64,000 nt of DNA from an uncultured Candidatus Saccharibacteria bacterium (GCA_964424305.1 CAYRHW010000001.1:71947-135946); one strand, 5' to 3'. Counted from the stretch's first letter, positions 13,665 through 46,255 are shown. The notes: generated by a model not told the origin, from the sequence alone. Numbers and translations: made by a program.

Positions 13665-13681
13665 TTTTAGTTTATAAAAAT

Positions 13682-24477: not shown

Positions 24478-25647
24478 TTAAAGAGGAGACGACACAATTG
24501 GGAAGATAGCCACCCTGTTGGGGATATCTCCATATTTGCGTATGTAGTCCCATTTCATTTCTTTGGGGCCAATAAGGTTTAGGTCTTCGGGTGTCGGGAA
24601 TATTTGGCAATTGCTCCACTTATATGGGTTGGGGCCGCTGGCGGAACTGTGTCCACCCACATAGAAAAATAATACAATATAGTCTCCATTAGTTTCTATT
24701 GAATTAATGTTTTCCATCGTTACTTTTGGGCACCTTCTCGAATCTTTTGCACATTGGCCAGTGGGTTCCCACTTTATGCAGTCTTGTTCCTCCTCGGGGA
24801 CAGTGCAGTCTCCCCCATCGCCGTCAAATGTTATGTCACCAAGGGCGAATTCTTCGGCATTTATTCTAACCCATCCACCGGCTTCATTAAAATATGGTTT
24901 TCTATAAAACTTGACGCCATCTCCCATGCCACCGGTATAGAATTGGTATATGCTCATAGATGAGGCTTCAGCGGTGGGCTTAGCCGGGCTTGTTACATTC
25001 AGGCACACTTGGTTGTTGGGATCAATTTGCTCACAGCCTCCTAGAAAATTTGGTAGTTCATGGAAAAACATAATATATGATGAGGCCCCCTGGACAATCT
25101 TGCCAGACTTTAATTTATATTTCATTTCTTTCAAATTTGTTTCCGATTTGGTATAGCGCGTGTAGGTGGGCTCTTTTGAAGGATCTTTGGGGGTGGTTTC
25201 TTCCGCGCAGTCAGCTGTAGTATATAGGTATACACCAGGGGAGAAAATTTTAGTGGGAGGGCGCGGAGGAGTCGGGGTTGTGGATATGGGGTTGTAGTGG
25301 AATATGCCTAAGTCTGGGCTAATAGTTGTGATGATTAAATAAGTGAAGGCTAGAAGCAAAAATCCGGTTATTGCCCCAGAAATTCTATCGGAAGCAATGG
25401 CCTTCAATTTGGGGTGGGCAGAGGATAGCACCCAAAGAACCCCACCAACCGCGAGGGTAGCCACAACTATCAACATTCCCAGCCCCATTCCCAAATCAAA
25501 AATATATTTAAAGGATTGGGGAAGAGTGGCGTCTCCTCCTAGTCCCGGGTTAGATCCTATCTGCGGGTATTGTACTTCCAGCGCTTGGGCGCGGCTATAA
25601 AAAAACAAACAAGATAGGATAAAGCTTAAAAAAAGGCGTTTTTTCAT
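24478..25647 (-). CDS. Pilin-module fusion protein 3 (signal peptide + VirB2/TrbC-like two-TM module + ~270-aa extracellular domain)
   Basis: N-terminus ...GMGLGMLIVVATLAVGGVLWVLSSAHPKLKAIASDRISGAITGFLLLAFTYLIITTISPDL parallels the modules of 25690-27048, 27063-30098 and 45887-46255. Last gene of the VirB4 operon. Confidence 0.6.
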   Translation of the reverse strand: MKKRLFLSFILSCLFFYSRAQALEVQYPQIGSNPGLGGDATLPQSFKYIFDLGMGLGMLIVVATLAVGGVLWVLSSAHPKLKAIASDRISGAITGFLLLAFTYLIITTISPDLGIFHYNPISTTPTPPRPPTKIFSPGVYLYTTADCAEETTPKDPSKEPTYTRYTKSETNLKEMKYKLKSGKIVQGASSYIMFFHELPNFLGGCEQIDPNNQVCLNVTSPAKPTAEASSMSIYQFYTGGMGDGVKFYRKPYFNEAGGWVRINAEEFALGDITFDGDGGDCTVPEEEQDCIKWEPTGQCAKDSRRCPKVTMENINSIETNGDYIVLFFYVGGHSSASGPNPYKWSNCQIFPTPEDLNLIGPKEMKWDYIRKYGDIPNRVAIFPIVSSPL

Positions 25648-25689
25648 TATTTAATGCTGTTTTAAACTGTTAATCGGAAAGTAGCGGAG

Positions 25690-27048
25690 CTATCTTTTCC
25701 CCTCTAATATTTCTATGCTTTTTAATTTCCTGCCGTCTCCGAAAAGGGTCTTGTTGTCTTTGTAAAAATCTTGGACATCGCTAGAAAAAACCAAACAATA
25801 GGGGGCCGGCTTGGGGGTCGCATCGCCCGGGTATTCAGCCTTAAGTTTTACCACATAGTTTCCTAAAACCTTAGCAGAGCCCGGGCAATTTTGTTGGCCC
25901 AAAGAGGAAAGATCTTTACAAACATCTTTTATGGCTGGTAGTGTGTCGGGAATTTTAGAATAGTCGAATGTGGTGTTTTTTACGTCGGAGACCGTATGGG
26001 TTGTGCCGAAGCCTTTTATTTCAGCTACCCCCCCCTTGTTTTCAGTATCTTGCCAAAATTTAATCCCGTCGCCAGAAGAAGATTCAGCTTTTTGGACTAT
26101 AGTTAAAGAGGCCGGACTAGTGACGCCCGGGGCAGAGGCGCCCAATTTTTTGCATGTGCCGACCCCGCTAAAGGTCAATTGGTAAAAATCAGAGCAGCTT
26201 CCTTGGTAGTCCTTACTTTGGTGTTCTGCCACCACAAAAGTTGACGTCTTAGAAAGAGCAGCGCCAAACCACCCATAATGGACAACGACGATGGATTTAG
26301 CCGAACCAATATCTTCGATAGAGGCAGTCAGCGGGTTTTCGCTCACGATATCATTACAGGTGGCATCGTTAAAAAGATAAACGCCAACCCTTATCGTTAC
26401 AAGTTTGTAAGATTTAAAGGCTCCTAGTGGAACTCCATTGGTGTTGCCACACTCTAACACTGTTTTGGTGGCGGCGCCTTTATAATTTTCGTCAGCGTAT
26501 CTTATTAAAAAGTATTTTGTATATCTTTCCGGATCGACCCCATTCGGACAAACATAACTAATAGTTGTATAGCCCGGCCAATTTAAAAGGGATGGGACCG
26601 AGAGAGAGTATTGCGTTAAAACCTCTGGGGCGCCCGCACTGGCGGGTTTTGTTAAAAGAACGGAAGTGCCGGGAGGACCAGCGTCAACGGGGGTCGTCCC
26701 CACTGTTTCAAATTGGGGGTTTATCGACCTCAGGATTATAAGGGACCCAAGGGTTAGCGTTACCCCCAAAATGGCGCTTATCATTTTACTCTTTCCTTCA
26801 CCGGCGGTTGTTGGGTTCCCCGACGAGGCCATATATTGGACAGCTCCAATGATAAATGCTATCCCCGCCAACCCTCCCACCACCATCATGGCAATATCAA
26901 ATATTTTTTTTGTAAACGAACCGAGCCCTTCTACGTTTTTAAACTCATCCACCTCAGCCCCGAATGCAGTAGTGGCGAAGGCGATCCCAATAGTTAATAA
27001 AAGAAAAATTAGAAGACTGGCCCGTAGATAGTTGTGTTTTTTTTGCAT
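25690..27048 (-). CDS. Pilin-module fusion protein 2 (VirB2/TrbC-like module + ~340-aa extracellular domain)
   Basis: ...MMVVGGLAGIAFIIGAVQYMASSGNPTTAGEGKSKMISAILGVTLTLGSLIILRSINPQF, then a Cys-containing beta-rich domain. Confidence 0.6.
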   Translation of the reverse strand: MQKKHNYLRASLLIFLLLTIGIAFATTAFGAEVDEFKNVEGLGSFTKKIFDIAMMVVGGLAGIAFIIGAVQYMASSGNPTTAGEGKSKMISAILGVTLTLGSLIILRSINPQFETVGTTPVDAGPPGTSVLLTKPASAGAPEVLTQYSLSVPSLLNWPGYTTISYVCPNGVDPERYTKYFLIRYADENYKGAATKTVLECGNTNGVPLGAFKSYKLVTIRVGVYLFNDATCNDIVSENPLTASIEDIGSAKSIVVVHYGWFGAALSKTSTFVVAEHQSKDYQGSCSDFYQLTFSGVGTCKKLGASAPGVTSPASLTIVQKAESSSGDGIKFWQDTENKGGVAEIKGFGTTHTVSDVKNTTFDYSKIPDTLPAIKDVCKDLSSLGQQNCPGSAKVLGNYVVKLKAEYPGDATPKPAPYCLVFSSDVQDFYKDNKTLFGDGRKLKSIEILEGKR

Positions 27049-27062
27049 GTTATAATAAATAT

Positions 27063-30000
27063 TTAATTTTCTTCTTGCTGTTGTTTTTCACAACTGAACC
27101 AGTTGTCTAATAATAAATTTCCTGGCTGCAGATAGGCGCTTACTTTTTCTCCATAACAATACCCAGGAATCTTTTTATTATTTATTACCACATCGTCGTT
27201 AATGATAGTGGGGAAGAGTTTGTTCTGGATTTGGTAGCAGCTGAAAATAGAAATGGTTTTGTCCGGGGTTATTTTTATTTTAACACTATTTTCATCCATT
27301 TTCTTGCGAGAATAACTCAGTCTTTTTAATACTTCTGCCCGAGCCAAGGGTAAAGAAGAATTTTTCAAAGAAGCAAGAGATTCGGAAATTTTGTTCGCGT
27401 AATCTTTAATTCCTTTATATTCCGTTCCTTTCGGGCACTTATCCTCGGCTTTTTTTCCAAGCATTAAGTTAAGCATTTTTTGGCAGGGACTCCCATCACA
27501 GTTTGATTTGACACACGCACAATTTACGCCAATTGTATCTCCATTCTCATCTGATGCCGGTGTCTCAGATAAGTCGCACGTTGCTTGGCAGGCAGTTTTG
27601 CCATCTCCACAGGGGCTGTCGCATTTACAATAATCCCTTTCGTCAGCGATTTGTTTAATAAGCTGTACCAGGGCGCTAGTTTTTTGGCGAAAAGCTGCGG
27701 CGTATTTTTCCAATTCGTTCCCCCAGGCAAGGGCCCCGTCAACGGTTTGCCCCACTGGAACTTCGGTATTTTTTTGACAATACATGTCGGTTTGGCGGTC
27801 CCATATATCTTGCATCCATTGGGTCGCGGTATGGGCACTGGGGCAATAGTATGTCAACGGTTCTCCGCTATAGGAAAATTTTTCACAGGTACTACTGCAA
27901 TTAAGTAGATTAAGGTCCAGGGCTCCTGGGGTACATGCATCATCAGTACACGGAGCCTTTGGAATATATGAGCAAGAAGGGCCCTTCCAACATTCTTGGA
28001 ATTGTTGGATGCCGCTAGTTGTGGCTTTTTTTGTTGTAGGGTCAATCTCTACTTTTCCAGTTGCCGGATCTATCTTTTGTGTGCAATTTGGACACTTTTG
28101 CTGAGATTGGTGGTTATAGAAATATAGGGAAGAGTAATCTCCGTTGTTAGGCATCATGGTAGCTGGCCAAACTGGGTCTTTAAAAACATCGGGGTCTCCA
28201 GGATTTTGGTTAGAACAATATCTCCCCTGTAATGCAAACTCCGCACATCTTTTAAACTGGGGAAAGTCGCTAAAGTTATCGGCGCATGTTTTAATGTCAG
28301 TGGTAGCAAGATAGGTTCTATCTCTGTTGGCGATAAGACTTTTTGAATTTGCGACACAGGCATCTTTGCATTCCTTAAGGGCATCGGGGCAATTCGAATA
28401 CTTTGCATCGCAATCTTTTGAGCAGGAAATTTTACAAGCGCCTACACAATATTGTTTATTTTCTTCGCCATTCGCGGCCGCCTCTTTGTAAAAACCATTG
28501 AAGCCCGACTCTTCTGTGCAGCTTGCATTGTTAATGCAATCACTAAGACATTTTTTTTGATTTGTAACGCATGTTTTGTATGTCTCAGTATTTTTATCCC
28601 CAGTACAAGAAGAGCAATTTTTAAAGCACTGTTGTCCCGCCTCGGTTATGGGGTCGCATGTTTTTTGGCAGTAATAGAAGCAACTGGAGTTGCTATAGCC
28701 GAAGCCTTCGCAATATTTCGAAATGTCCACTGGTTTTTTAGTGACTTGGTCTGTAAACCCATTGTTGGTAGAAGTGGTAAACTTTTCTTTGTTGATAGTC
28801 GCCGAATCTATTAGAAATTTCACGGCTGAACTCCCAAAATAGCAGTTGTTGTTTACTTTTGTTTTAGCGGTTTTTAAATTATTCAGATCTTTTTCTAAAT
28901 TGATGTCTTTTATTTTTTCGCTAAGATATTTCAATTTGTCAACTAACCGCAATTTTTTCCAAGCCTCTTTGTCAATAATTTTTATTTTTTCGTCGCTACC
29001 ATCAACTTCGATTTCTTTTTCAACGGCATCTAAAATGGCAGAATCAGCGAACTGACTCCTAAATTCATCTAACCCCGCGTATTCGCAAGCTTCTTTACAC
29101 GTATCTGCGCATGCCTTTTTACACTCTTGTCCGCACTCTTGGCCAGTGCGGGTTTTGAAGTTCTTTTCACAATCTGATTGACAAGTTTGGCAAGTTCCCC
29201 CACAACCGTTATCGTCTAGGGTCATGGGGCCGTGTTCCATTTTTTTAATTGCGTCCGCACTACAACATTGCTTCCCAATACACGGTTTGGATTCACAATC
29301 TGAGGGGCAAGTATTCGGGACACAAGAGGCACCCTTCTGTACCGCGGCTCCCGGATAGCTACAGTTGCAACCTCCTGCGAGCTTACAATCTCCTCCACCC
29401 CCTCCGCAAGAGCAAGTGTTCATTACTTCGGCTATCTTTTCAGACAATAAGTCAAAAAGTTTAGCTTTTTTTTCTACTGCTTCCGCCAGCTTCAAAACGC
29501 AATCCATTCTATCGTGGTTGAAGAAAGTTGGCTCCCATTCGTCAGCAGTGGACACATCTCCGTCGATTGGTTCTCCGCTACCATTAAAATCATAACAACG
29601 CATGCCCCTTGCCACAAGATTCTCGGCTAAAACCCCAATTGGTATTTCGTCAAAGGATAGATTTTGGGTTGTCCCCCGGGTCACCGGCGGATCAACGTGG
29701 ATCCACGGGATTTGGATGGGGACCCACGATATTTTTGCGAAAGATAGGATCTCGGGATTTATCGCTTTAACGAAGATATAGGCGCCAGTGGTAAGGATTA
29801 AACCGAATAAACCTGCTTTAACCCACTCTTTCCCTTCGTTAGTAACCTTGCTCATTCCCAAAGAAACCAACCAATATAGTCCGCCGATGGTTATAACTAG
29901 AATAGATAGTGACGCCGCAGATAGCATTATCGTATTTAAAACGAACGCGACATATTCTGGTATGGACGTTGTTCCCGCTAACTCAGCAACTTCAGCGGCT

Positions 30001-30098
30001 TTGGCTGTTAATGGAACAAAAAAAGTCAGACCCATGCTTAAGCAGGCAGAAAGAAAAAAGGGAGCAAAGAACAAAAATTTGCTTTTTTTTGTTTGCAT
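27063..30098 (-). CDS. Pilin-module fusion protein 1: 1011-aa, extremely Cys-rich extracellular protein
   Basis: N-terminus ...LSAASLSILVITIGGLYWLVSLGMSKVTNEGKEWVKAGLFGLILTTGAYIFVKAINPEI, followed by ~870 aa with about 68 Cys (hand count), e.g. CSCGGGGGDCKLAGGCNCS and CGQECKKACADTCKEAC. Confidence 0.65.
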   Translation of the reverse strand: MQTKKSKFLFFAPFFLSACLSMGLTFFVPLTAKAAEVAELAGTTSIPEYVAFVLNTIMLSAASLSILVITIGGLYWLVSLGMSKVTNEGKEWVKAGLFGLILTTGAYIFVKAINPEILSFAKISWVPIQIPWIHVDPPVTRGTTQNLSFDEIPIGVLAENLVARGMRCYDFNGSGEPIDGDVSTADEWEPTFFNHDRMDCVLKLAEAVEKKAKLFDLLSEKIAEVMNTCSCGGGGGDCKLAGGCNCSYPGAAVQKGASCVPNTCPSDCESKPCIGKQCCSADAIKKMEHGPMTLDDNGCGGTCQTCQSDCEKNFKTRTGQECGQECKKACADTCKEACEYAGLDEFRSQFADSAILDAVEKEIEVDGSDEKIKIIDKEAWKKLRLVDKLKYLSEKIKDINLEKDLNNLKTAKTKVNNNCYFGSSAVKFLIDSATINKEKFTTSTNNGFTDQVTKKPVDISKYCEGFGYSNSSCFYYCQKTCDPITEAGQQCFKNCSSCTGDKNTETYKTCVTNQKKCLSDCINNASCTEESGFNGFYKEAAANGEENKQYCVGACKISCSKDCDAKYSNCPDALKECKDACVANSKSLIANRDRTYLATTDIKTCADNFSDFPQFKRCAEFALQGRYCSNQNPGDPDVFKDPVWPATMMPNNGDYSSLYFYNHQSQQKCPNCTQKIDPATGKVEIDPTTKKATTSGIQQFQECWKGPSCSYIPKAPCTDDACTPGALDLNLLNCSSTCEKFSYSGEPLTYYCPSAHTATQWMQDIWDRQTDMYCQKNTEVPVGQTVDGALAWGNELEKYAAAFRQKTSALVQLIKQIADERDYCKCDSPCGDGKTACQATCDLSETPASDENGDTIGVNCACVKSNCDGSPCQKMLNLMLGKKAEDKCPKGTEYKGIKDYANKISESLASLKNSSLPLARAEVLKRLSYSRKKMDENSVKIKITPDKTISIFSCYQIQNKLFPTIINDDVVINNKKIPGYCYGEKVSAYLQPGNLLLDNWFSCEKQQQEEN

Positions 30099-30099
30099 T

Positions 30100-31902
30100 C
30101 TATTGCGCTGCTTGTTTTCTGGCTTCCTTCATTTTTAATATCTCTTCGGGTGAGGTGGTGACAATTTTATCTTCTGTCGGGCTGGCAACTATCTGGATTG
30201 CTACGTGTTTACTACCAGCAAAAAATATTCCTTCGCCGACAGCCGATTCTAATAGTAAGTATTTTTCTTGTTCGGTTAAGTTGAATACTTTTTGGACGGC
30301 ATCAATTGTTGCTGGCGATTGTTTTAATAGAATGGACATAGAGGAATTTGTGATAATGGGCTGGCCATATTCTGATTTCATAAAATCAGCAACATCTTGA
30401 GTAATCGTTGTTACCCCTAAATAGTATTTTCTAGAACGTTTAACTAGGCCGAATAGAAAGGATGCGCCTTCTGGAGTTTGCATCATCCACCAGGCCTCAT
30501 CAATAACTAAAATTCTCTTCTTTAACTTTGATCGGACAATGTTCCAGATGTACCGCATAATGATATACAGGGCCATTGGTTTTAGGGCCTCCTCCATGTC
30601 TCTAATTCCAAAAACGATCATATTCTTTTCCATGGTGATATTGGATTTCTGGTTGAAGAAATCGGCGTATGTTCCTTTTGTAAATTTTCTGATTCTTCTT
30701 ACTAAAGACTCTGCTCCAGTCATACTTTCTAAAATTTCTTCAAAATCAGACATCAGTGGTATGTTCTCTTGCCACGTTATGGGGTCTGAGGTTGCCGTAA
30801 TATCTTTTATGGCGTATGTTTCGGTCAGTGCTTGATCAATAATGCTATCCTCTTCTGGAGTTAACCCACCTAACATAATCCTTAATAACCCGACCAAGTT
30901 TATAATATTAGATCTTAATATGTCTTCTTTATTTTCTTCTTCTCCCGGGATCGGTAGATCAAATGGGTTTAGTTGGTGGGCCGATGTTAGGGAAATTTTG
31001 AAATATGATCCGCCGACAGCATCTCCCAGCGTCTGGTATTCATTCTCTGGATCGATGACAATAACATCGACTCCCTGCATCAAGTACCTTAAAATTTCTA
31101 ATTTAATGGCATATGATTTTCCACTTCCTGATTTTGCAAAAACAACAGAGTTTGCATTTTCCAAGCTAAATCTGTCAAAAAGGACAAGAGAATTATTGTG
31201 GCGGTTAACGCCATAAAGAATTCCTTCATTGGAACTTAGGTCGAAAGATATAAAGGGAAAGGAGGTAGATAATGGAGCGGTGTTCATTGGGATATGTACC
31301 CCAATCAAATCTAACCCATAGGGGCTACAAGAGATGAATCCCTCTTTCTGTTTATATAGGGCAGGTTTAATATATATTAGTCGCGCCTCAAAGATTGACC
31401 TTAATGTGAACTCAGTATCTTTTAGGGCTTTTAAATTATCTTCATAGACAGTTATATATAATCCGAAGCGGAACATTCTTTCTTCCGCTGATTGTAATCT
31501 GGTTCTTAGGGCTTCGATATTTTGGTAGGCCATTTCCAGGGCCGGATCACGAACCAAGCCCTTATCTCCCCTCTCTAATAACTCAGCAGACACTTCGGTA
31601 ATTTTCTTCCTTAACTTTTTTAAAATTAATTCTGTGCTGATCGGCGATATATGGAAGGCTATGTCCATCGGCGAATTCAGATTGATTACTGGGGACAGCC
31701 ATCCAGTGTTTAGATATCTGGGGTAAGAAAAAATAAAAAAGGAACGGCAAAGTCTTTCGCCAAGCACAATGTGGTCTGGGTTCACTCCAATGTGCGGGGG
31801 CGAAATGATGTCTCGTACATCAAAAGCCTCTTCTTCAAATATTTTTTCTTCAAGAAGGTCGTTTTTTTTGGGTAATAGTTTATCTAAAAATGGTATCTTC
31901 AT
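30100..31902 (-). CDS. virB4: VirB4/TrbE/PrgJ-family type IV secretion ATPase
   Basis: 600 aa; Walker A VFAKSGSGKSYAIK, Walker B RILVIDEAWWMM, GVTTITQD motif; N-terminal CagE/TrbE/VirB-type domain. Confidence 0.9.
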   Translation of the reverse strand: MKIPFLDKLLPKKNDLLEEKIFEEEAFDVRDIISPPHIGVNPDHIVLGERLCRSFFIFSYPRYLNTGWLSPVINLNSPMDIAFHISPISTELILKKLRKKITEVSAELLERGDKGLVRDPALEMAYQNIEALRTRLQSAEERMFRFGLYITVYEDNLKALKDTEFTLRSIFEARLIYIKPALYKQKEGFISCSPYGLDLIGVHIPMNTAPLSTSFPFISFDLSSNEGILYGVNRHNNSLVLFDRFSLENANSVVFAKSGSGKSYAIKLEILRYLMQGVDVIVIDPENEYQTLGDAVGGSYFKISLTSAHQLNPFDLPIPGEEENKEDILRSNIINLVGLLRIMLGGLTPEEDSIIDQALTETYAIKDITATSDPITWQENIPLMSDFEEILESMTGAESLVRRIRKFTKGTYADFFNQKSNITMEKNMIVFGIRDMEEALKPMALYIIMRYIWNIVRSKLKKRILVIDEAWWMMQTPEGASFLFGLVKRSRKYYLGVTTITQDVADFMKSEYGQPIITNSSMSILLKQSPATIDAVQKVFNLTEQEKYLLLESAVGEGIFFAGSKHVAIQIVASPTEDKIVTTSPEEILKMKEARKQAAQ

Positions 31903-31904
31903 TT

Positions 31905-32579
31905 TTACTTAATTAGCTCTGGTAATATTTCTGGGTAATAACCAATTTCTGCTTGGTCTGGGTGATGGATCGCCCAAAATAATTCTATAAGTTCTGCTGT
32001 GGTTAGGGGGATAGATTCTATTCCACATCGTCTTAGCCCCATGGCCAGAAATTCCATTCTTTGCCAAAGTTGGGTTCGAGCTCTTTCAAACTCTTCGTCA
32101 GACATCGCTTTTTGAGCTGGGGTTTGGCCCTTATTCCCACCGAGAATTCCCCCAAGGTTAAAACCCTTAATGGCTGATTTAACACCGAGGGCCTCCATGA
32201 GAGAATAGGGGACGACGAAATAGAAATTCTTTACCATAATAGTTTCTCCCTGCACTAGACTTTGTATATATTCTCGGTAAGAAGCGGTTTGTATTTTTAA
32301 AAGGTCATTAGTGTGTTTCTCTTCCAAGGTTTTTAGACTATCTAAATACGGTGTTATATTTATTCGTTTTGATTGAAGAATAATTTGGCAGGGAAAATCC
32401 AAGCTGTTTAAAAAGTTTTGGTAAGCAAAAATAATGGCGGTTTGCTCGTCTTCAGATTTCAAAGCAAAATTTAAGGAAGAGACCATTAGAACCCCGCGGA
32501 TACCCTGGTTTTTTAAAATCAACACTCCCTCTTTAATATCTCGGACTTCTAAAAAATCTTGTGTCGAAGATTCTGGCAT
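31905..32579 (-). CDS. T4SS-associated protein resembling the N-terminal (non-ATPase) domain of VirB4
   Basis: 224 aa. FLEVRDIKEGVLILKNQGIRGVLMVSSLNF...FPCQIILQS parallels FDVRDIISPPHIG..IVLGERLCRSFFIFSYPRYL...MDIAFHISP of the adjacent VirB4. No P-loop; 2-nt gap to virB4. Confidence 0.45.
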   Translation of the reverse strand: MPESSTQDFLEVRDIKEGVLILKNQGIRGVLMVSSLNFALKSEDEQTAIIFAYQNFLNSLDFPCQIILQSKRINITPYLDSLKTLEEKHTNDLLKIQTASYREYIQSLVQGETIMVKNFYFVVPYSLMEALGVKSAIKGFNLGGILGGNKGQTPAQKAMSDEEFERARTQLWQRMEFLAMGLRRCGIESIPLTTAELIELFWAIHHPDQAEIGYYPEILPELIK

Positions 32580-32585
32580 TTTTTA

Positions 32586-32996
32586 TTATTTTGTTTTTAG
32601 TTCAACTTGAGTTTTTAAACTTTTTAAAGCACTGGCCCGGCCCATGCCTAGTTTTTTCTCTTCAACGACAAATTTTAGCGGTGCTTTCTGTATGGTTTTA
32701 AATGGGTAAAGAGATTCTTTCTTTTTCCATGTGTAATTTTTTGAGCTGCCCAGAAACCCGATAGAATTCAAAATAACCGTTAAGGCGGGAATCCCGTCCA
32801 TTTTGTAAAAAGCTAAACCAGCCGTTCCCACTCCGATTATGAGGGCCAGAATTATAAACAATGAAAATGGGAGGAAGGAATAAAGCAAAAAGATAACAAC
32901 GCCAGCGCCAACTAAATAGAGGAATTGTTTTGTAGTAAGAAAAGAAACAATTTTTGATTCTTCTTCGATAAATTGTGGTACCGAGTATTGTTCCAT
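32586..32996 (-). CDS. PrgI/VirB3-like small T4SS membrane protein
   Basis: 136 aa; MEQYSVPQFIEEESKIVSFLTTKQFLYLVGAGVVIFLLY followed by a second TM. Pattern and position (upstream of VirB4) match the PrgI family. Confidence 0.6.
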   Translation of the reverse strand: MEQYSVPQFIEEESKIVSFLTTKQFLYLVGAGVVIFLLYSFLPFSLFIILALIIGVGTAGLAFYKMDGIPALTVILNSIGFLGSSKNYTWKKKESLYPFKTIQKAPLKFVVEEKKLGMGRASALKSLKTQVELKTK

Positions 32997-33040
32997 GTTT
33001 TATTATTATAACATAACAAAAAAATGGAAACAAAAACGGG

Positions 33041-33081
33041 TGTCAATATCTATTGACATATAGAATTGTAAATGGTATAAT
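33041..33081 (+). promoter_or_regulatory. Perfect consensus sigma-70 promoter with palindrome over the -35
   Basis: TGTCAATATCTATTGACA palindrome (33041-33058); TTGACA (33053-33058), 17-nt spacer, TATAAT (33076-33081). Leader hairpin GTTGGGA-N5-TCCCAAC at 33093-33111. Confidence 0.65.
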
Positions 33082-33168
33082 ATAAGAGTGATGTTGGGAG
33101 TGTTTCCCAACAAATGGATCGGACATTGACATCAAAGATGTCTAAAAGAAAACGTGAAGGAGACTGTC

Positions 33169-34518
33169 ATGAAGAATTGGAAAAAATGGTTGGTAATGGG
33201 GATGCTTATCTGGGTGTGGCTACTGGGGCTCTATGTTTTGTGGGCCCTCGGTGGAACGTTCCAGAGGATCATCACAGTCGTGTTGGCCCTGATTATGGTC
33301 AACTGGCTGGCGCATGGATTCACGATTGTCAAAGAGGCGACGGCCAAGTTGGTCGTGTCTTTCGGGAGCTTCAGCCACTGTATGATGGCCTGGAAAGATC
33401 ATGATTTCCGGAGGAACCTTCCGGACCCGCGCAATCTTATCACTCCTGACAACGAGTGGGATGTGATCGACGCCCCTGGTAAACAGTCGGCCTGTGGGTT
33501 GCGCTGGATTGGGCTTTGGCCCGTGTATTCGGTCGTCAAATACGACCTCAAATACCGGGTCATAGAGTTGGTGGAGGGACAGGAAGTGGTCGAAACCTAT
33601 GATCTAAGAGGGATCGATTTCTTCACCCTCAAGCAGCACATGAACTGGTTGGATTTGCTTGATGCAGAGTCAGCTGGTGAGGAAGACGGCACCGGAGCGT
33701 TGAAGTTTGATCTGGAGTTCCTTCTTGGGCTCCAGATCATCAATCCCTATAAGGCTCATTACGGGGCCCCGGGGGATTGGAACACGAACACGGTGGCGCG
33801 TCTGAGTTCTTTCTTGAGAAACTGGGTGACAAGTAAGTCCCCCAAGCAGCTTCTGACCATGAGTCGGTTGCCGAAACGGGCTCGCAGGGCTGTTGGAAGT
33901 GTCACCCCCAGAGTGCCCACCCTCTATCAGGAACTCCTGAAGGATCCCGTCGTCAAGGACATCGAACGGAACTGGGGCATCAAGGTGATCGAGAACGGAA
34001 TCGATGTCCGGGATATCGGGATGACCGAGGAGCTCCAGAAAGCTTTTGCTGCTGAGCAAGAGCAGAAGCTGTTGGCGAAAGGACTCGCCGCACAGACGGC
34101 TGACCCAGTCATGCAGTATCTTTCGGCGATGACCGGGAAGACTGTCCGCGATCTCCAGGTGGAGTACAACGCAGACCCGGAAGTCTTCAACGGGAGATAC
34201 GCGCGACAGATCTCCAAGGCCGAAGAAATGGCGGAGCAGGTTCTACCATTGGCACAAGGGAGATCACAGCATATGTTCCCGGGTGCTGATGGTATCGGGA
34301 AGCTACTTCTCGGGCTAGTAGCAACGGCCCGAAGTGGTGACCAGGGTGGGGACAATACTCCACCCCCGGCACCCGTAACGACCCCCCCCGTTCCGCAACC
34401 AACTGGAGGAGCAGGACAGCCCGTGGTGTCACCACCTGCTGGCGTTCCGATGACCACCGAGGAGGCAGAGGCCTTCCATGCGGAGATGGAGGAACTATTG
34501 GCGAGAGGAGGAAAGTGA
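33169..34518 (+). CDS. SPFH/Band-7 (prohibitin-like) domain membrane protein with Pro-rich C-terminus; GC-rich, likely horizontally acquired
   Basis: Start set at ATG 33169, 7 nt after AAGGAG. N-terminal TMs, IVKEATAKLVVSFGSF, GIKVIENGIDVRDIGMTEELQKAFAAEQEQK (SPFH-like), PPPAPVTTPPVPQP tail. Hand-counted lines are 45-67% GC vs ~35% in flanks. Confidence 0.75.
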   Translation: MKNWKKWLVMGMLIWVWLLGLYVLWALGGTFQRIITVVLALIMVNWLAHGFTIVKEATAKLVVSFGSFSHCMMAWKDHDFRRNLPDPRNLITPDNEWDVIDAPGKQSACGLRWIGLWPVYSVVKYDLKYRVIELVEGQEVVETYDLRGIDFFTLKQHMNWLDLLDAESAGEEDGTGALKFDLEFLLGLQIINPYKAHYGAPGDWNTNTVARLSSFLRNWVTSKSPKQLLTMSRLPKRARRAVGSVTPRVPTLYQELLKDPVVKDIERNWGIKVIENGIDVRDIGMTEELQKAFAAEQEQKLLAKGLAAQTADPVMQYLSAMTGKTVRDLQVEYNADPEVFNGRYARQISKAEEMAEQVLPLAQGRSQHMFPGADGIGKLLLGLVATARSGDQGGDNTPPPAPVTTPPVPQPTGGAGQPVVSPPAGVPMTTEEAEAFHAEMEELLARGGK

Positions 34519-34536
34519 AAAGGGGCTTACAAGCTC

Positions 34537-34568
34537 AAAAAAGGCGAGACACACGTGTCTCGCCTTTT
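34537..34568. terminator. Bidirectional terminator
   Basis: AAAAAA-GGCGAGAC-ACACGT-GTCTCGCC-TTTT between convergent genes. Confidence 0.8.
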
Positions 34569-34580
34569 CACTTACTTTTT

Positions 34581-35156
34581 TTAATTAATCGGCTCCCTGT
34601 AGGCATCATCTTTTTTTGGTTCTGTCGGTGGTTGTTTCTCCGTGTTTTCTTTTTCGGGAAATTGGGTGGATGGTGTTTGAATCTCGTCATCAGTAGGCCC
34701 CGGTTCCAGCGGCACATTTTGCTCAATTGGTTTTGGTGGGAGCACCGAGAGTTGACTTAAATCTTCCCGAGAATCAGTTGTTGCTTCTAATATGGGATCT
34801 TGCTCGTGTTCTAAAGTAGAGGGTTTTTCTTGTTCGGCGATTTCCTCTGGGGTTGCCCTTCTTGCTCCTAAAAGTAGTTTTTCCTTAACATCAGCAGCAA
34901 GTCCTTGGGCTGTTTGATCGGATACCATTAATCTCTCCTTAATTAAGGAGACTAAGTCATTTTCTTGGGTTGTCCCAAGAACAATTTCTTCAACTATCGT
35001 TAGAATTAAATCTCCGTTGAGTAATTCCTCCCTTTCTAGTTTATCGGAGATCTCATCGGGTTTCTCCTCTAAACCATACTTCTGAAGAATTTCGGCAATA
35101 GTAGTGGCAGTGTCTCTGTCAAAAAGTACTTTGCCGTAGTTATTAGTGTCATTCAT
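34581..35156 (-). CDS. Hypothetical protein (acidic, disordered C-terminus)
   Basis: 191 aa, 3 nt downstream of the VirB6-like gene; no recognisable motif. Confidence 0.55.
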   Translation of the reverse strand: MNDTNNYGKVLFDRDTATTIAEILQKYGLEEKPDEISDKLEREELLNGDLILTIVEEIVLGTTQENDLVSLIKERLMVSDQTAQGLAADVKEKLLLGARRATPEEIAEQEKPSTLEHEQDPILEATTDSREDLSQLSVLPPKPIEQNVPLEPGPTDDEIQTPSTQFPEKENTEKQPPTEPKKDDAYREPIN

Positions 35157-35159
35157 ATT

Positions 35160-37511
35160 TTATTTTTTAGGAAGATTAAAAAATGTTGATTTTGGAGGAT
35201 TCTTTGAAATATTTGAAATATGATCAGCATCTCGGCTTATTGATTGTGAGTGGGCGTCGTCCGCTGGTTGTTGTGAGGTTCTCCCTGACGCTGCGTTGTA
35301 TCCCCTTTTGAAGGTGCCGGCTATTTTCCTTCCTGCTTTTTGAAACCCTTTTCCTGTTCCCCTCAATGTTTTTCCCCCCACATTTTTAATTTGTCCTGGC
35401 AATCTTTTAGTTGCGTTTTTGGTTGCGTGACCTGCTTTCCTAAGAGCAGCAGGAACAGCTGTTTTGACTGTGCTTCCTGCTCTTGCTGTTGCGCCAACCG
35501 CCCTTTTCCCAGCCCCATATATTGTTTGCGCTACCTTCGGGGTGGTAACCGCGCCATATGCTGCGCCAGCTCCAACCGTTACGCCCTTCGCTGCTGCGCC
35601 CACTGTTCTGGCGGCGCCAGTTACTGCGGTTTTTGTTACATTGGCTACCTTGCTCGCAGTAGACACCGGTGTAGTGGGTGATTTGTAGTATGCGGGCCTG
35701 CTGGTTCGGATTGTCTTTATGTTCGTCATTAAATTTCTATGTTCGCCATCGTAGCGATCTGCTTCGGCAGTATTCCCGGCGACTCTCGCGGCAGCAGCTT
35801 TTGTTTTAAGTACCTTGCCGTAAGCTATCTGATTTTTTAGTCCTCCACCTCCGCCGCTAACAGAATCGTACATTTTTTTCTTATCGGCTGGGCTTGCTTT
35901 AGATAACGCGAGCCCAACATTTTTGCCACTCATTGCAGCAAGACCATGGGGGCTACCCTGGGTAAGAGCCTTTGCTTTTTCTCCGGGAGTCTTTAAGCTA
36001 TTAATATTGTGCCCTACTTGATCTAATTCAGCGACAGTCGGATTTTTCTTATTCTTTATCGCGCTGTCAGCAGAAAGTTTGGTGAGTACATCGGGTTGCA
36101 CTCCACGGGCAGCAGCTTTCTTAGCAAGGTTGGGGAATTTTGCAGAGTTAAGAGTTCCAGCGCTTCCTCTACTCGCTAATTCTTTCATTCCACCAGCGAC
36201 AACACTGCTAGAAGCCCCTCTTCTTTCAACGGCTTTTTTAATTTCAGTGTCAGACATGCTCTTCATTTGTTCTTGGGCAGCATTGGTTCCCTTGGCTTGT
36301 TTTGCAGCGGTTACCCCAACCTTTCTTAAGCCAACACTCTCTAAGAATCTTCCACCAGACGCAGAAACTTTAGATGCAGCATTTGATACTGCACCGGCAC
36401 CTGGAATTTGTCTGGCCATTGCTCCGGCAACCCCCGCGGCTGACCCACCAACTGATTTAACGGCACCCATTGCCCTACCGGCAACGGTAGCTCCTGCCGC
36501 CATTGCCATTGCTCCTGCTGCTCCGCTACTTTTCATTGCTAGTTTGAGGCCGACATAGAGGAACATACAGACTATAAAGACAGCAGGAAGCATGGCCGAA
36601 GCGGTTGTCCCCTTTGGTATAGCCTTGAAAACATCACCAGCAACTTTTATACAAAACATCACTCCTACCCCCACAAAGGCCCATTTTAATAGAGCCCCCA
36701 TCCACTCGTCAAAATATTTTTTAGAAAATTCGAAAGTGATACAAAAGAATGCAAACGGTGACATTATGAATAGCAATATCAGTAGTGCCCATCTTGCCAA
36801 CATAACCCCAGCCAAAAGGAAATATATGAAAGCCGAAAAAACGTAAAAAATAGCGCCGATTATGCAGAGTTTCAAATATTCGAAAGGCTCTATCCCCATC
36901 TGCGTACATTCGCCCATGCTTCTTCCCCTTATCTTGGTTCTTAGTGGTGTTAATATATCATTTTCATACTTTTCTATCGGCCCTCTTATGCTATCACCCT
37001 GAAGCCCCTTCATAATTATGTAAGAAGTATCTATAATTAGTCCGCACATTAGTGGAGTAAAGTTTATCAGGATAGCAACTATTATCAGCTTCCCCAATTT
37101 TCTTTGAGCAGCATATTCTTGAATCCTTAGCGTTGTGGCAATGCCGATGAATACAAATCCCAAAACAACCCCCATGTTAGCGATATCTCTCACTGAGGAC
37201 CATATTTTATAATAGTCAGGGTTACCAGTGATGTTATCGTGGTTAGTCATGGTCTTAAGAAAGGTAGGACTTGACACTGTTGAGAATAAGCTGATCGCCA
37301 TGTCGGCGATATAATAGGTATATCGGATTAAATCCGCAGTAGCGGTTGTGATCATCCCCAACATTTGCGTTCCTAAGCAGTCATACCATGCGGCATTGGT
37401 TATATTGGGTATTGCAATAAATAAAAAAGCAAAAAGAAAAATCAGAGATACAGAAATAATAATTGATTTTTTCTTTTTGCCCGAGAGGAAGTCTTTAATT
37501 TTTTGGAACAT
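35160..37511 (-). CDS. VirB6/TrbL-like polytopic T4SS membrane protein with ~450-aa Ala/Gly/Lys-rich tail
   Basis: 783 aa. The N-terminal ~330 aa has at least 6 TM segments in a TrbL/VirB6-like arrangement. The C-terminal part is low complexity (AGATVAGRAMGAVKSVGGSAAGVAGAMARQ...KGVTVGAGAAYGAVTTPK). Confidence 0.55.
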   Translation of the reverse strand: MFQKIKDFLSGKKKKSIIISVSLIFLFAFLFIAIPNITNAAWYDCLGTQMLGMITTATADLIRYTYYIADMAISLFSTVSSPTFLKTMTNHDNITGNPDYYKIWSSVRDIANMGVVLGFVFIGIATTLRIQEYAAQRKLGKLIIVAILINFTPLMCGLIIDTSYIIMKGLQGDSIRGPIEKYENDILTPLRTKIRGRSMGECTQMGIEPFEYLKLCIIGAIFYVFSAFIYFLLAGVMLARWALLILLFIMSPFAFFCITFEFSKKYFDEWMGALLKWAFVGVGVMFCIKVAGDVFKAIPKGTTASAMLPAVFIVCMFLYVGLKLAMKSSGAAGAMAMAAGATVAGRAMGAVKSVGGSAAGVAGAMARQIPGAGAVSNAASKVSASGGRFLESVGLRKVGVTAAKQAKGTNAAQEQMKSMSDTEIKKAVERRGASSSVVAGGMKELASRGSAGTLNSAKFPNLAKKAAARGVQPDVLTKLSADSAIKNKKNPTVAELDQVGHNINSLKTPGEKAKALTQGSPHGLAAMSGKNVGLALSKASPADKKKMYDSVSGGGGGLKNQIAYGKVLKTKAAAARVAGNTAEADRYDGEHRNLMTNIKTIRTSRPAYYKSPTTPVSTASKVANVTKTAVTGAARTVGAAAKGVTVGAGAAYGAVTTPKVAQTIYGAGKRAVGATARAGSTVKTAVPAALRKAGHATKNATKRLPGQIKNVGGKTLRGTGKGFQKAGRKIAGTFKRGYNAASGRTSQQPADDAHSQSISRDADHISNISKNPPKSTFFNLPKK

Positions 37512-38587: not shown

Positions 38588-39682
38588 TTGGCCGAATTCA
38601 AGGGGTTTTGCAAGACACCTTGTTTTTATTATAGTTTAATTTCTTTGGTTGTGCTTGCTATAATATTTTTTGGCATTAACAAATTTCCTAAAACAGTAGC
38701 CCTAACACGGGCGGGTTATGTTAGCGTTGCAGAGGCTTCATTTTTTACGCCCGTTTTAGCCAATGTGGATGATTCAAAAGAGGGGGTCTTCTTCTTTAAC
38801 CAAAGTCAGTTTCGTAGTTTAGAGGCGCCTGAATTAAAAATTATCCAAAATGATTGCTTGGCTGCTTTCTCCACCCCAAGAGTATTGTCGCCGAAGGTTT
38901 TAGGAGCAATTTTCGGACAAGGGCCACAAATTAGGAAAGAGGTTGTAGAATATGAAATTAAAGCTGGAGATACGTTTAAATCTATTGCCGCCAGCTATGA
39001 TATATCTTTAGATACGTTATTATTAGCAAACGACCTAACAAAATCTTCAAAAGTAAAAGTTGGGCAAAAATTGATTATTTTGCCAGTAACCGGTTTAGTC
39101 CACATAGTAAAATCCGGGGACACCTTAACTGCTATTGCTAAATTGTACAAAGCCAACGTGGACGAAGTCGTCGAGACCAATGATCTCTCCGACGAACTAG
39201 ATGTATATGTTGGTGATATCTTAGTCGTTCCCAACGGCACCATGCCGAAGAAAGCGCCTGTCTACGCGCAAGCATATCTACCAGATAGCTATTTCAGTTT
39301 CCCAGTTCAAGGAAGAATTACCCAGACCCTGCATTGGTACAATGGCGTGGATATTGCCAATGAATGTGGAACTCCAGTTTATGCTTCAGCCCGGGGAGTA
39401 GTTCTAAAAGCTAAATTGGATACAATCACCGGTGGGGGTAACGTTATTACAATAAGACATGACAACGGAGTTGTGAGTTGGTATGGGCATTTAGAAACGA
39501 TGCTGGTAAAAGTGGGTGATGTGGTCGGTCCGGGGGACAGAATCGGTTCAGTGGGTGGTAAGCCTGGGATGGCAGGAGCTGGTATTTCGACTGGTTGTCA
39601 TTTGCACTTCACTATTATCGGTGCCAAAAATCCATTTGCCAAACTACCCTTCGGATACCAGATGAAATATGTCTCGAGTTAG
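38588..39682 (+). CDS. LysM-domain M23 family metallopeptidase
   Basis: Two LysM repeats (YEIKAGDTFKSIAASYDISLDTLLLANDL; HIVKSGDTLTAIAKLYKANVDEVVETNDL) and an M23 core (NGVDIA..GTPVYA...GCHLHFTI). TTG start per track. Confidence 0.9.
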   Translation: MAEFKGFCKTPCFYYSLISLVVLAIIFFGINKFPKTVALTRAGYVSVAEASFFTPVLANVDDSKEGVFFFNQSQFRSLEAPELKIIQNDCLAAFSTPRVLSPKVLGAIFGQGPQIRKEVVEYEIKAGDTFKSIAASYDISLDTLLLANDLTKSSKVKVGQKLIILPVTGLVHIVKSGDTLTAIAKLYKANVDEVVETNDLSDELDVYVGDILVVPNGTMPKKAPVYAQAYLPDSYFSFPVQGRITQTLHWYNGVDIANECGTPVYASARGVVLKAKLDTITGGGNVITIRHDNGVVSWYGHLETMLVKVGDVVGPGDRIGSVGGKPGMAGAGISTGCHLHFTIIGAKNPFAKLPFGYQMKYVSS

Positions 39683-43856: not shown

Positions 43857-44123
43857 TTAGCCCTTCTTTTTTGGTGCCTTCGATGTGTTTTTTATCTTTC
43901 TGTCGGCTTCTTTTTTCAGGTAGGCTAATAGTTTTTTTCTCTTAACTACCATTTTAATTAAACCCCTTTTTGAGTGGAGATCCTTGGGGTGCTTTTTTAA
44001 ATGCAAGACTAATTTGTCGATTTCTTCTGTGAGTAAACCAATTTGAACCTCAGGAGATCCTGTGTCTGTTTCGTGGGTACCGAGTTTCTTTATTATCTTT
44101 GTTTTTTCTGCAGTTTTTAACAT
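43857..44123 (-). CDS. rpsO: 30S ribosomal protein S15
   Basis: [36 protein letters not shown]. Confidence 0.95.
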
Positions 44124-45872: not shown

Positions 45873-45886
45873 GTAGTATCCTGATG

Positions 45887-46255
45887 CTATATCGGTGTTC
45901 CTCCTAGTGCAGTTAGAACGGTATTAACAATCACCGCGGCCCCATATGCCAAGAAACCTCCAATAAGCGTTGCGAAAATAATTTTTTTACCAAGAGCCAA
46001 CAAATTTGGACTTCCTCCCGAGAAAAGCATTACAAGTCCGCCGATCGTTATCAACAGAATGGCTACTGGCAAGATAAGGTTATCTTTAATCCAATTAATA
46101 ATAACAACCGGCATGCCAGTTAAGTCGCTGAATTTGCACCTGGCATTTGGGCTGTCGCCAGTTCCGCAATTAACAATCGCACCAGCCGCTAATATCATAG
46201 TGGGTAGTAGCACAAGGGAGAGGAGGGTTATTAAAAATAATTTTTTCATAAACAA
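45887..46255 (-). CDS. Stand-alone VirB2/TrbC-like T4SS pilin candidate
   Basis: 122 aa; signal peptide, then ...PVAILLITIGGLVMLFSGGSPNLLALGKKIIFATLIGGFLAYGAAVIVNTVL. Same module as the N-termini of the three fusion proteins. Confidence 0.55.
   Translation of the reverse strand: MFMKKLFLITLLSLVLLPTMILAAGAIVNCGTGDSPNARCKFSDLTGMPVVIINWIKDNLILPVAILLITIGGLVMLFSGGSPNLLALGKKIIFATLIGGFLAYGAAVIVNTVLTALGGTPI

Follow-up and report, generated by a model that had tools for sequence, protein, structure and literature searches.

Three genes that follow virB4 in a type IV secretion system (T4SS) locus encode proteins of 1011, 452, and 389 aa, in which a VirB2/TrbC-type pilin module continues into a large C-terminal domain. 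The locus itself is a known system. The fusion is not peculiar to the window (the whole 64,000-nt stretch of DNA analysed), as most pilin genes linked to virB4 in a survey of related Paceibacteria genomes were fused. The appended domains evolve fast and are mostly without a known family. A fusion of the pilin module to large outer domains was not found described in the published literature.

The T4SS locus and its core genes

The region is the chromosomal T4SS locus characteristic of Patescibacteria (here of class Paceibacteria, near Candidatus Staskawiczbacteria), a locus type already published for this group (Wang 2023; Quinonero-Coronel 2025). ORF coordinates, lengths, and gaps were all as given in a first-pass annotation of the window. 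The minus-strand ORFs formed two units, and the whole locus was flanked by rsmA on one side and by jag-yidC-rnpA-dnaA on the other. Unit 1 contained the VirB6-like gene and, after a 3 nt gap, a 191-aa gene. A terminator-like hairpin with a 13-bp stem (34539–34568) followed the 191-aa gene, which probably closes the first transcription unit. Unit 2 contained PrgI/VirB3, TrsD, VirB4, and the three pilin-module genes, with intergenic gaps of 6, 2, 1, 14, and 42 nt from the PrgI-like gene to the last fusion gene; minus-strand promoter-like sites were observed in the intergenic region 32997–33153, upstream of the PrgI-like gene. Between the two units lay a plus-strand gene (33154–34518) whose ‘SPFH’ label was the weakest of all, with E-values of 0.17 for Band_7 and 7e-5 for HflK across 41 residues (37–77).

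The VirB6/TrbL-like polytopic membrane protein (783 aa; 35160..37511, minus strand) showed about 6–7 hydrophobic segments within residues 13–329 in the hydropathy scan, followed by a long Ala/Gly/Lys-rich tail. The VirB6/TrbL label it had been given was weak from the window protein alone, as Pfam TrbL (PF04610) gave an E-value of 0.0054, below the cut-off; among 30 homologues taken from related loci, 8 matched TrbL (best E 4e-10). In 51 related loci a homologue lay in the same place, with rsmA and PrgI on either side, and a PDB search with the 783-aa protein returned no match. The acidic 191-aa protein (34581..35156, minus strand) gave no match in Pfam and NCBIfam scans. Its homologues, with ~30% identity, occupied the same position in only two of the related loci surveyed, L005 and L007.

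The first gene of the second unit encodes a PrgI/VirB3-like small membrane protein (136 aa; 32586..32996, minus strand), which matched PF12666 with an E-value of 5.8e-9 and 36.8 bits (cut-off 27); in 71 related loci this gene likewise preceded TrsD and VirB4. The VirB4-type ATPase (600 aa; 30100..31902, minus strand) is MPF-FATA-like and scored 358 bits against NCBIfam conju_CD1110 (cut-off 325), covering only model positions 177–734, and also matched Pfam P-loop_TraG (1e-29) and AAA_10. VirB4 proteins of Staskawiczbacteria and other Parcubacteria were 75–91% identical to it. The part of the model missing from the ATPase, the N-terminal domain, was matched by the TrsD-like protein (224 aa; 31905..32579, minus strand), that is, the VirB4 N-terminal domain as a separate gene. 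This protein matched conju_CD1110 at positions 11–119, NCBIfam VirB4_plasma with an E-value of 1.3e-9 (model positions 103–235), and TrsD with 1.2e-3; its orthologue in the related locus L001 is annotated as PF26593 TraC-like, and the gene was present in 76 related loci. On these matches the earlier PrgI, VirB4-N-domain, and VirB4 labels hold, and profile searches together with synteny back the description of a minimal Gram-positive-type, MPF-FATA-like T4SS.

Component set and synteny matched the Patescibacteria T4SS as described in excerpts (here and below) of Wang et al. 2023 (Cell, PMC10633639) and Quinonero-Coronel et al. 2025 (Microb Genom, PMC12102498). The likeness extends to the MPF-FATA-like VirB4, separate TrsD, PrgI/VirB3, and a candidate VirB6, to a divergent PF18895 pilin array beside virB4, and to a chromosomal position adjoining dnaA, dnaN, rnpA, and ksgA/rsmA with no relaxase or coupling protein nearby. 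The novelty implied for the locus by the first-pass annotation is not supported, as these genes, pilin arrays, missing relaxase, and dnaA/rnpA/ksgA neighbourhood are already in print (PMC10633639, PMC12102498, and an excerpt of PMC12857230). In the excerpts of PMC10633639 and PMC12102498, VirB2 homologues are treated as small and fusions are not mentioned. Three array genes (SEML1_0017–0019) of Southlakia epibionticum, which has been studied experimentally, are 381–417 nt long (about 126–138 aa), compared with 389–1011 aa for the virB4-linked proteins of the window.

The pilin module and the appended domains

The 389-, 452-, and 1011-aa proteins and a stand-alone 122-aa protein had a common N-terminal module, consisting of a signal peptide and a two-helix hairpin, over which ~80 residues aligned; in the three fusions the signal peptide is of the cleavable type. 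Paralogue BLAST pairs gave E-values of 2e-10 to 3e-6, with similarity limited to the module. PF18895 (T4SS_pilin) matched the 452-aa protein with an E-value of 9e-8 and 32.5 bits, above the curated cut-off of 26.6, and the 389-aa and 122-aa proteins with 2e-4 each, below it; the 122-aa protein also matched TrbC/VirB2 (PF04956) with an E-value of 1e-3. The 1011-aa module had no Pfam match and was tied to the others by BLAST (E 1.7e-10 with the 452-aa module) and by an HMM built here, which is circular for the seed sequences. PF18895 was matched by 35 of 38 modules and TrbC/VirB2 by 5 of 38 (best 9.5e-5). Among 89 further fused proteins, PF18895 was found in 79 and TrbC in 4 (best 1.9e-28, a tandem relative). 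In the PDB, the top matches of the module profile were two Agrobacterium VirB2 entries with marginal E-values of 0.08 and 0.27. Profile searches and synteny support the earlier view of the common module as a VirB2/TrbC-type pilin, and for the window proteins themselves homology to canonical VirB2/TrbC is marginal.

Averaged over 76 modules, net charge was +1.2 in the hairpin loop and −0.1 and −0.5 in its two flanks. The C-terminal parts of the 389-, 452-, and 1011-aa fusions contained 8, 8, and 67 Cys, respectively, and the hairpins none. The earlier placement of the large domains outside the cell agrees with this predicted topology. The motifs GG...S, basic loop, and INP were conserved and common to fused and unfused forms; INP, which ends the second helix, was almost invariant, and the 122-aa protein is without this motif of the fused forms. 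A class III signal-peptide motif, as in type IV pilins, was not found in the module proteins, and an LPXTG-type sortase signal was present in 0 of 79. The 1011-aa protein had a lipobox-like LSAC, but such a motif occurred in only 2 of 79 module proteins and was missing from the 1011-aa orthologues. Sortase substrates and lipoproteins, identities that the first-pass annotation had set against its own pilin reading, were therefore rejected, and the relation of the module to T4SS pilins stood.

The 1011-aa fusion (27063..30098, minus strand) has a signal peptide, a hairpin at residues 46–117 (nt 29748–29963), and an 894-aa Cys-rich ectodomain. Full-length homologues were found in at least 17 protein clusters with 27–64% identity, and 22 Cys were invariant over 18 homologues. 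Homologues lay directly after virB4 in L001 and in the related loci L005–L008. The protein had no relative in Pfam or the PDB, and two of its homologues showed Peptidase_M23 inserts.

In the 452-aa fusion (25690..27048, minus strand), the hairpin occupied residues 42–112 (nt 26713–26925) and was followed by a 340-aa ectodomain. A weak match to the Mbov_0395 pilin-like ICE protein was also observed. Its ectodomain is a distant relative of the one in the 389-aa fusion (24478..25647, minus strand), which showed a hairpin at residues 42–113 (nt 25309–25524), a Pro-rich linker, and a 276-aa ectodomain. AlphaFold predicted helices 44–74 and 80–108 in the 389-aa protein with a pLDDT of about 70, and the remainder was below 50. 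Its orthologues in L001 and L005–L007 were always the last gene before jag.

AlphaFold gave no confident fold for the outer domains in two runs (pLDDT 37 and 32), and profile and PDB searches detected no adhesin or enzyme domain in the three window fusions. A beta/gamma-crystallin assignment for the 389/452 ectodomains was rejected. PDB 3hzb gave E-values of only 0.14 and 0.053, Crystall_3 reached 0.013 in 1 of 11 proteins, and hhalign probability against an approximate gammaB-crystallin sequence was 0.75%.

The 122-aa protein (45887..46255, minus strand) is encoded 16 kb from the T4SS locus, between tRNA-Arg and tRNA-Lys genes, and is a candidate for the ordinary (major) pilin. Window proteins resemble VirB2/TrbC pilins (T-pilus VirB2, PDB 8exh, 8cue; PF04956) in signal peptide, two hydrophobic helices, short basic loop, and gene position near VirB4/VirB6, with VirB2 as the top-ranked PDB match. 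They differ in the marginal similarity given above and in a monoderm rather than Gram-negative setting. VirB2/TrbC pilins have a hairpin-only mature protein of roughly 70–120 residues, a size that only the 122-aa protein shares. The window fusions are longer by 276–894 residues at the C-terminus, so that the intact protein cannot be cyclised head to tail.

Frequency and divergence of the fusions

In 80 related genomes, 58 of 72 virB4-adjacent pilin-module genes bore 100–1950 extra C-terminal residues. Module genes were located downstream of virB4 on the same strand in 58 of 82 loci (80 GTDB loci, 56 of them positive, plus L001 and the window). Across 1.84 billion representative proteins, about 29,000 clusters contained the module, and in many of these it was fused or repeated in tandem; tandem proteins had 2–11 hairpins in a single chain.

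Between the window and L001, identity was 91% for VirB4, 92% for DnaA, 83% for TrsD, and 77% for PrgI, and for the fusions it was 54%, 39% (452-aa protein), and 54%. Within the fusions the hairpin was 66–78% identical and the outer domain 40–57%. Outer domains of 69 genes fell into 39 BLAST clusters, including 32 singletons. SLT was present in 7 and Peptidase_M15_4 in 1 of the 89 fused proteins scanned, and peptidoglycan hydrolase domains (SLT, M23, M15) accounted for about a tenth of the added domains scanned.

Possible roles of the fusion proteins

The fusions may be modules for host contact that are exported, anchored by their hairpin, and handled by the T4SS, possibly in the role of minor or tip pilins; we hold this reading with belief and doubt in about equal parts. 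The Sec pathway would insert the hairpin so that its basic loop faces the cytoplasm and its two ends face outwards, and the disulphide-rich C-terminal domains would thereby come to lie on the cell surface. The VirB4/VirB6 machine would handle the fusions as it handles pilins. They would either stay anchored at the machine, or a few would be drawn into a tip complex or a short pilus together with an ordinary short pilin, for which the 122-aa protein is an example. In this way they might do the job of the VirB5 tip proteins or separate adhesins of other T4SSs, and the variable domains might bind or breach the host-cell surface on which epibionts depend. VirB2 pilins with solved structures are small, and by geometric reasoning a filament would have no room for a 30–95 kDa domain on each of its subunits, so at most a minority of subunits could be fused. 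The earlier idea of pilin-anchored display, if taken to mean display on a filament, is not supported as stated; pilus formation and the entry of fusions into a pilus are hypothetical.

Modular type IV pilins, for example PilB of Streptococcus sanguinis, are comparable, as a functional module is grafted on the pilin module of minor subunits and gives the filament or tip adhesive or enzymatic properties (PMC8179133). This is an analogy only: that filament system is unrelated, and its pilins have a class III signal peptide and just one helix at the N-terminus. The tandem VirB2/VirB5 variants of the Bartonella Trw and Anaplasma T4SSs (cited in the PMC12102498 excerpt) are likewise adjacent divergent paralogues in non-conjugative host-interaction systems, and are thought to widen host-surface recognition. 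Those are small pilins varying in sequence only, whereas the window paralogues vary in the large domains attached to them. Relatives in which the pilin module bears an SLT or M23 domain recall VirB1 lytic transglycosylases, and the proposed tip or contact role recalls VirB5. VirB1 and VirB5 of classical T4SSs are, however, separate soluble proteins, and no similarity to either was detected in the three window fusions.

Tentatively, the Paceibacteria VirB2-type hairpin might be a general T4SS carrier module for hypervariable binding domains, a conserved 900-residue disulphide-rich scaffold, and cell-wall hydrolases, also used in chains of 2–11 hairpins. If VirB4/VirB6 does extract the fusions into a heteropolymeric pilus or tip, they would be the first modular pilins of any type IV secretion system, and would point to a role for the essential Patescibacteria T4SS, namely to recognise and breach the host envelope.

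A somewhat unlikely alternative is that the hairpin is a membrane anchor only and that the fusions are fixed surface proteins or an outer channel cap, with a pilus never formed. Pili are normally absent from Gram-positive-type T4SSs (PMC12102498, excerpt), and the outer domains are too big for each filament subunit. Chains of several hairpins also resemble membrane-embedded arrays more than filament subunits, and cell-wall hydrolase cargo would act from a membrane tether. However, the same hairpin motifs in fused and unfused forms suggest a common handling step, and in S. epibionticum the pilin genes lie inside the T4SS cluster and are essential (PMC10633639, excerpt).

It is improbable that the proteins are polymorphic effectors, in which the module directs the protein to the T4SS and the variable C-terminal part is cut off after INP and released onto or into the host. 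Polymorphic toxin systems do combine a conserved N-terminus with a hypervariable C-terminus, as seen here, and the RP4 TrbC pilin loses a C-terminal peptide during maturation. The hydrolase domains (SLT, M23, M15) of relatives and the nearly invariant INP would also fit. The window array, however, showed neither a toxin or enzyme domain nor an immunity-like small gene, and the 1011-aa family scaffold, with its invariant Cys over the whole length, looks structural and not like a swapped toxin tip.

There is also a slim chance that the machine takes up host DNA or nutrients, ComB-like (Helicobacter), with the fused pilins as capture devices. Such import was proposed for Saccharibacteria, which cannot make nucleotides and in which competence genes are dispensable (PMC11665869, PMC12857230), but Pfam scans detected no DNA-binding domain in the ectodomains, and transport direction is not addressed by the window sequence.

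A conventional conjugative element or remnant, with relaxase and coupling protein beyond the window, is largely refuted and most improbable, even though VirB4 is nearest to conjugative CD1110-type ATPases, a serine recombinase gene is present at 13682–15355, and Patescibacteria genomes commonly encode coupling-protein homologues at other sites (PMC12102498, excerpt). The order rsmA ... jag-yidC-rnpA-dnaA around the locus was kept across many distantly related genomes, and this conserved order beside housekeeping genes indicates that the locus is inherited vertically and is no mobile island. GC content of the locus was not distinct from its surroundings, and relaxases were reported in only 103 Patescibacteria genomes of a published survey (PMC12102498, excerpt). 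Relaxase, VirD4, and VirB11 families were absent from the scanned window ORFs (all of at least 300 aa and a number of shorter ones), as the first-pass annotation had stated for the window, and the apparatus is, we infer, not a conjugation machine.

Beyond rsmA, a plus-strand gene (38588..39682) encodes a LysM + Peptidase_M23 protein (Pfam M23 1e-23, LysM 2e-23). It is a possible cell-wall remodelling partner whose membership of the system is uncertain, and 14 related loci had it at the same place with respect to rsmA and VirB6.

Gene set and putative transcription units of the locus

All ORF coordinates and lengths of the first-pass annotation were reproduced to the base. On the minus strand, a 783-aa VirB6/TrbL-like protein (35160–37511; a weak match) and a 191-aa protein (34581–35156) are followed, beyond a 454-aa plus-strand gene (33154–34518) that interrupts the set, by PrgI/VirB3 (136 aa, 32586–32996), a VirB4 N-terminal part or TrsD-like protein (224 aa, 31905–32579), VirB4 (600 aa, 30100–31902), and three pilin-module fusions of 1011 aa (27063–30098), 452 aa (25690–27048), and 389 aa (24478–25647). 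From the 136-aa gene onward the gaps are as short as had been claimed (6, 2, 1, 14, and 42 nt). A consensus scan detected weaker minus-strand promoter sites within the 32997–33153 spacer, together with a perfect TTGACA-17-TATAAT sigma-70 promoter with an extended −10 TG (33053–33081, plus strand) preceding the 454-aa membrane protein gene. Between the convergent 454-aa and 191-aa genes, the sequence can form a strong hairpin with a 13-bp stem and T-runs on both sides (34539–34568). Because of the promoter sites in the spacer and this hairpin, we read the locus as two putative minus-strand units rather than one. No obvious Shine-Dalgarno motif was seen upstream of any locus gene, and no repeats, inverted repeats, or shufflon-like structure were found in the pilin array.

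The public gene calls start the 389-aa and 1011-aa genes later (336 and 990 aa), so that the signal peptide is lost; orthologue alignments favour the longer starts. The related locus L004, considered as a strain variant whose gene at this position encodes 336 rather than 389 aa, was discarded, as its DNA is 100% identical to the window and the start-codon call alone differs.

The 600-aa protein matched the NCBIfam model conju_CD1110 with 358 bits (curated cut-off 325), aligned to model positions 177–734 only. The 224-aa protein matched VirB4_plasma (1.3e-9), positions 11–119 of CD1110, and TrsD (1.2e-3). VirB4 is therefore split, as the annotation had guessed, with the 224-aa protein supplying the N-terminal part absent from the 600-aa protein. 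The 136-aa protein was assigned to PrgI/VirB3 by PF12666 (36.8 bits, cut-off 27). The 783-aa protein on its own gave a TrbL match with an E-value of 0.0054, and 8 of its 30 homologues from related loci matched TrbL (best 4e-10). It has about 6–7 hydrophobic segments and then a long low-complexity tail, and its profile gave no significant PDB match. The ‘SPFH’ label of the 454-aa protein is the weakest of the set, its basis being a short HflK match and a Band_7 match with an E-value of 0.17. Only one related locus (L006) yielded a homologue of this gene, and we leave the gene out of the T4SS. Relaxase, coupling protein, and VirB11, reported as missing from the window, gave no match in any of the window ORFs scanned.

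The pilin module and the stand-alone pilin

The 1011-, 452-, 389-, and 122-aa proteins can be aligned over about 80 residues. The shared module consists of a signal peptide ending in A-x-A, usually followed by LEV.YP, a first helix ending in GG..Y..S, a polar loop with Lys or Arg, and a second helix ending in INP. The proposed kinship with T4SS pilins held in the profile searches, where PF18895 matched the 452-aa protein above its cut-off (9e-8) and the 389-aa and 122-aa proteins at 2e-4 each, and TrbC/VirB2 (PF04956) matched the 122-aa protein at 1e-3. Among 38 modules from related genomes, PF18895 was found in 35 and TrbC in 5; TrbC was also matched by 4 of 89 fused relatives (best 1.9e-28). 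When the module profile was run against 177,635 PDB sequences, Agrobacterium VirB2 (8exh, 8cue) ranked first, with non-significant E-values of 0.083 and 0.27.

The module sequences carry signals of a predicted out-in-out topology. Over 76 modules the mean net charge was +1.2 in the loop and −0.1 and −0.5 in the flanks, a pattern that fits a loop in the cytoplasm and both ends outside. The hairpins contain no cysteine, and the C-terminal parts contain 8, 8, and 67. Anchoring of the fusions as ordinary lipoproteins or sortase substrates, which the annotation had named as a result that would count against its reading, was rejected: there is no LPXTG signal, and the 1011-aa protein has the sole lipobox-like motif (LSAC), which its orthologues lack.

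The 122-aa gene lies within 45798–46380 (minus strand) between same-strand tRNA-Arg(tcg) and tRNA-Lys(ctt) genes, 15 nt from the downstream tRNA. The spacer that separates it from tRNA-Arg contains AT-rich promoter-like hexamers and a T-run, so co-transcription with the flanking tRNAs is not claimed. Its protein is divergent, has no INP, and has no close representative in the best 150 module matches. The window rpsO (S15) gene is at 43857–44123, and Southlakia epibionticum likewise has a non-essential extra pilin gene near rpsO. The 122-aa protein is a candidate for an ordinary pilus subunit.

Spread of the fusions and divergence of their ectodomains

Co-occurrence of pilin fusions with VirB4, which the annotation had suggested surveying, was examined in 80 GTDB genomes picked by VirB4 similarity, in which all ORFs were searched with an HMM built from the module (its E-values are circular for the 7 seed sequences and not for others). 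At least one module gene was present in 56 of the 80, with few exceptions downstream of virB4 and in its orientation; contig ends truncate many of the genomes lacking one. Fifty-eight of 72 virB4-linked module genes encode at least 100 residues beyond the hairpin (median 192, maximum 1952). The closest genomes (L005–L007) retain the series, with a protein of about 1000–1200 aa, one or two of 360–500 aa, and a 380–430-aa protein of the 389 type.

When the four window modules were searched exhaustively with HMMER against 1.84 billion representative proteins, 29,075 clusters were recovered at E ≤ 1e-3, of which 2,460 reached ≤ 1e-10. Among the best 150 matches, 78 are single-module proteins, 64 of them with at least 100 extra residues (median 325), and the other 72, within the range P0126–P0272, carry 2–11 modules per chain. 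One of these database proteins, P0156, has 11 hairpin modules in one polypeptide, and in another, P0126, an SLT lytic transglycosylase comes after four modules. In multi-module proteins the LE.P.G motif after the signal peptide is repeated ahead of each internal module. A word-index search returned very few relatives of the 389-aa and 1011-aa proteins and the exhaustive search many, and the two proteins joined as a single query returned relatives of the 1011-aa protein alone.

The outer parts diverge strongly. Between the window and its close relative L001 (GCA_964395515.1), identity was 92% for DnaA, 91% for VirB4, 83% for TrsD, 77% for PrgI, and 69% for Jag, and 54%, 39%, and 54% for the 1011-, 452-, and 389-aa fusions, respectively. 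Within the fusions, the hairpin was 66–78% identical and the outer part 40–57%. The outer parts of 69 genes fell into 39 BLAST clusters, 32 of them singletons. By these comparisons, the ectodomains evolve fast.

The ectodomains of the 389-aa and 452-aa proteins are distantly paralogous to each other. For the 1011-aa family, at least 17 full-length relatives were recovered at 27–39% identity; they have in common 22 invariant cysteines and conserved end regions that enclose variable middles. Two similar, nearly invariant motifs, DEIPIGxLxEN (residues 150–160) and xEVPVGQTVD (778–788), lie near opposite ends of this ectodomain. The three window ectodomains have no relative in Pfam, NCBIfam, or PDB, and both ectodomain families searched as profiles gave no significant PDB match. 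AlphaFold2 models from three-sequence alignments reached mean pLDDT values of 37 (389-aa) and 32 (1011-aa). A beta/gamma-crystallin fold for the 389/452 ectodomains was hinted at recurrently but non-significantly, received no support from hhalign, and is not claimed.

Hydrolase cargo was detected in relatives: SLT lytic transglycosylase in 7 of the 89 fused relatives, Peptidase_M15_4 in one of the 89, and Peptidase_M23 in two homologues of the 1011-aa protein. The database protein P0226 contains repeated Cys-rich and T-I-T-N-type segments, read by eye as adhesin-like.

Published systems, putative role, and other features

Both flanks of the locus consist of housekeeping genes, with dnaN, dnaA, rnpA, yidC, and jag on one side and rsmA, LysM-M23, a DksA/TraR-type zinc-finger protein, PNPase, and S15 on the other. 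The window VirB4 is 75–91% identical to proteins named Staskawiczbacteria or Parcubacteria. L001 has the identical order PrgI-TrsD-VirB4-954-461-385-jag-yidC-rnpA-dnaA-dnaN, and the order M23-rsmA-VirB6-...-PrgI-TrsD-VirB4-pilins-jag-...-dnaA was found again in more distant genomes.

In VirB systems, VirB4 dislocates membrane-inserted VirB2, VirB6 is the assembly site, and VirB5 reaches the tip. By analogy with these roles, we infer that the hairpin of the fusions would deliver the ectodomain to the machine and keep it there, whether in the membrane or within a short pilus made mainly of short pilin, where the fusion would be a rare subunit or the tip. For steric reasons, a homopolymer consisting of fused subunits alone seems impossible. 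The ectodomains would contact or open the host envelope.

The interpretation is supported in part: profiles and synteny uphold a T4SS locus with T4SS-pilin-type modules. The locus type itself is already known from the Patescibacteria literature. Wang et al. 2023 (PMC10633639) describe for S. epibionticum an essential T4SS and an essential pilin series, with no relaxase or coupling protein. The phylum survey of Quinonero-Coronel et al. 2025 (PMC12102498) reports a VirB4 clade allied to MPF-FATA with TrsD, PrgI, and VirB6, VirB2-like pilins found by PF04956 and PF18895 in arrays of 2–11 genes at ~25% identity, rare relaxases, and T4SS near dnaA, dnaN, rnpA, and ksgA in Paceibacteria. A 2025 review restates these findings. 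In the accessible parts of the published surveys, VirB2 homologues are counted and handled as small pilins. In S. epibionticum, three of the array genes, SEML1_0017–0019, measure 381–417 nt, compared with fusions of 389–1011 aa in the window. The full-text literature searched, whose coverage is incomplete, yielded no account of large domains fused to T4SS pilins, so that this is absence of evidence only. The fused pilins are a widespread variant with no published description found.

In the words of a 2024 perspective (PMC11665869), it is ‘completely unknown’ what role the T4SS has in Saccharibacteria, which are one class of Patescibacteria, although the only species tested cannot do without the system. 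Most virB4-linked pilin genes in the surveyed related Paceibacteria genomes bear large, rapidly diversifying extracellular domains, some of them peptidoglycan hydrolases. This offers a testable lead, that the machine may present modules for host contact and wall breaching, and raises the question whether PF18895 proteins act as subunits of a filament at all. The window itself adds one unexceptional case of an arrangement that is widespread, and its value is modest.

Elsewhere in the window, a 638-aa ORF (3508–5424, plus strand) with a weak Big_1/invasin-like Ig-domain match (30.5 bits, cut-off 34.9) overlaps at its start with a LOOT RNA (Rfam RF03000; 3438–3552, plus strand; 75.9 bits, gathering score 46.4). 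The cluster at 6540–15355 contains a sigma-70 region-4 protein (7627–8835), an AAA_25 ATPase (9692–10771), a large serine recombinase (13682–15355), and several ORFs with no family; it is probably an integrated element unrelated to the T4SS. At 50463–54400 (minus strand), a copper-type P1B ATPase adjoins a DsbD_2/CcdA-like membrane protein fused to HMA and cupredoxin-like domains, and these genes may have a bearing on how disulphides form in the many exported proteins that are rich in Cys.
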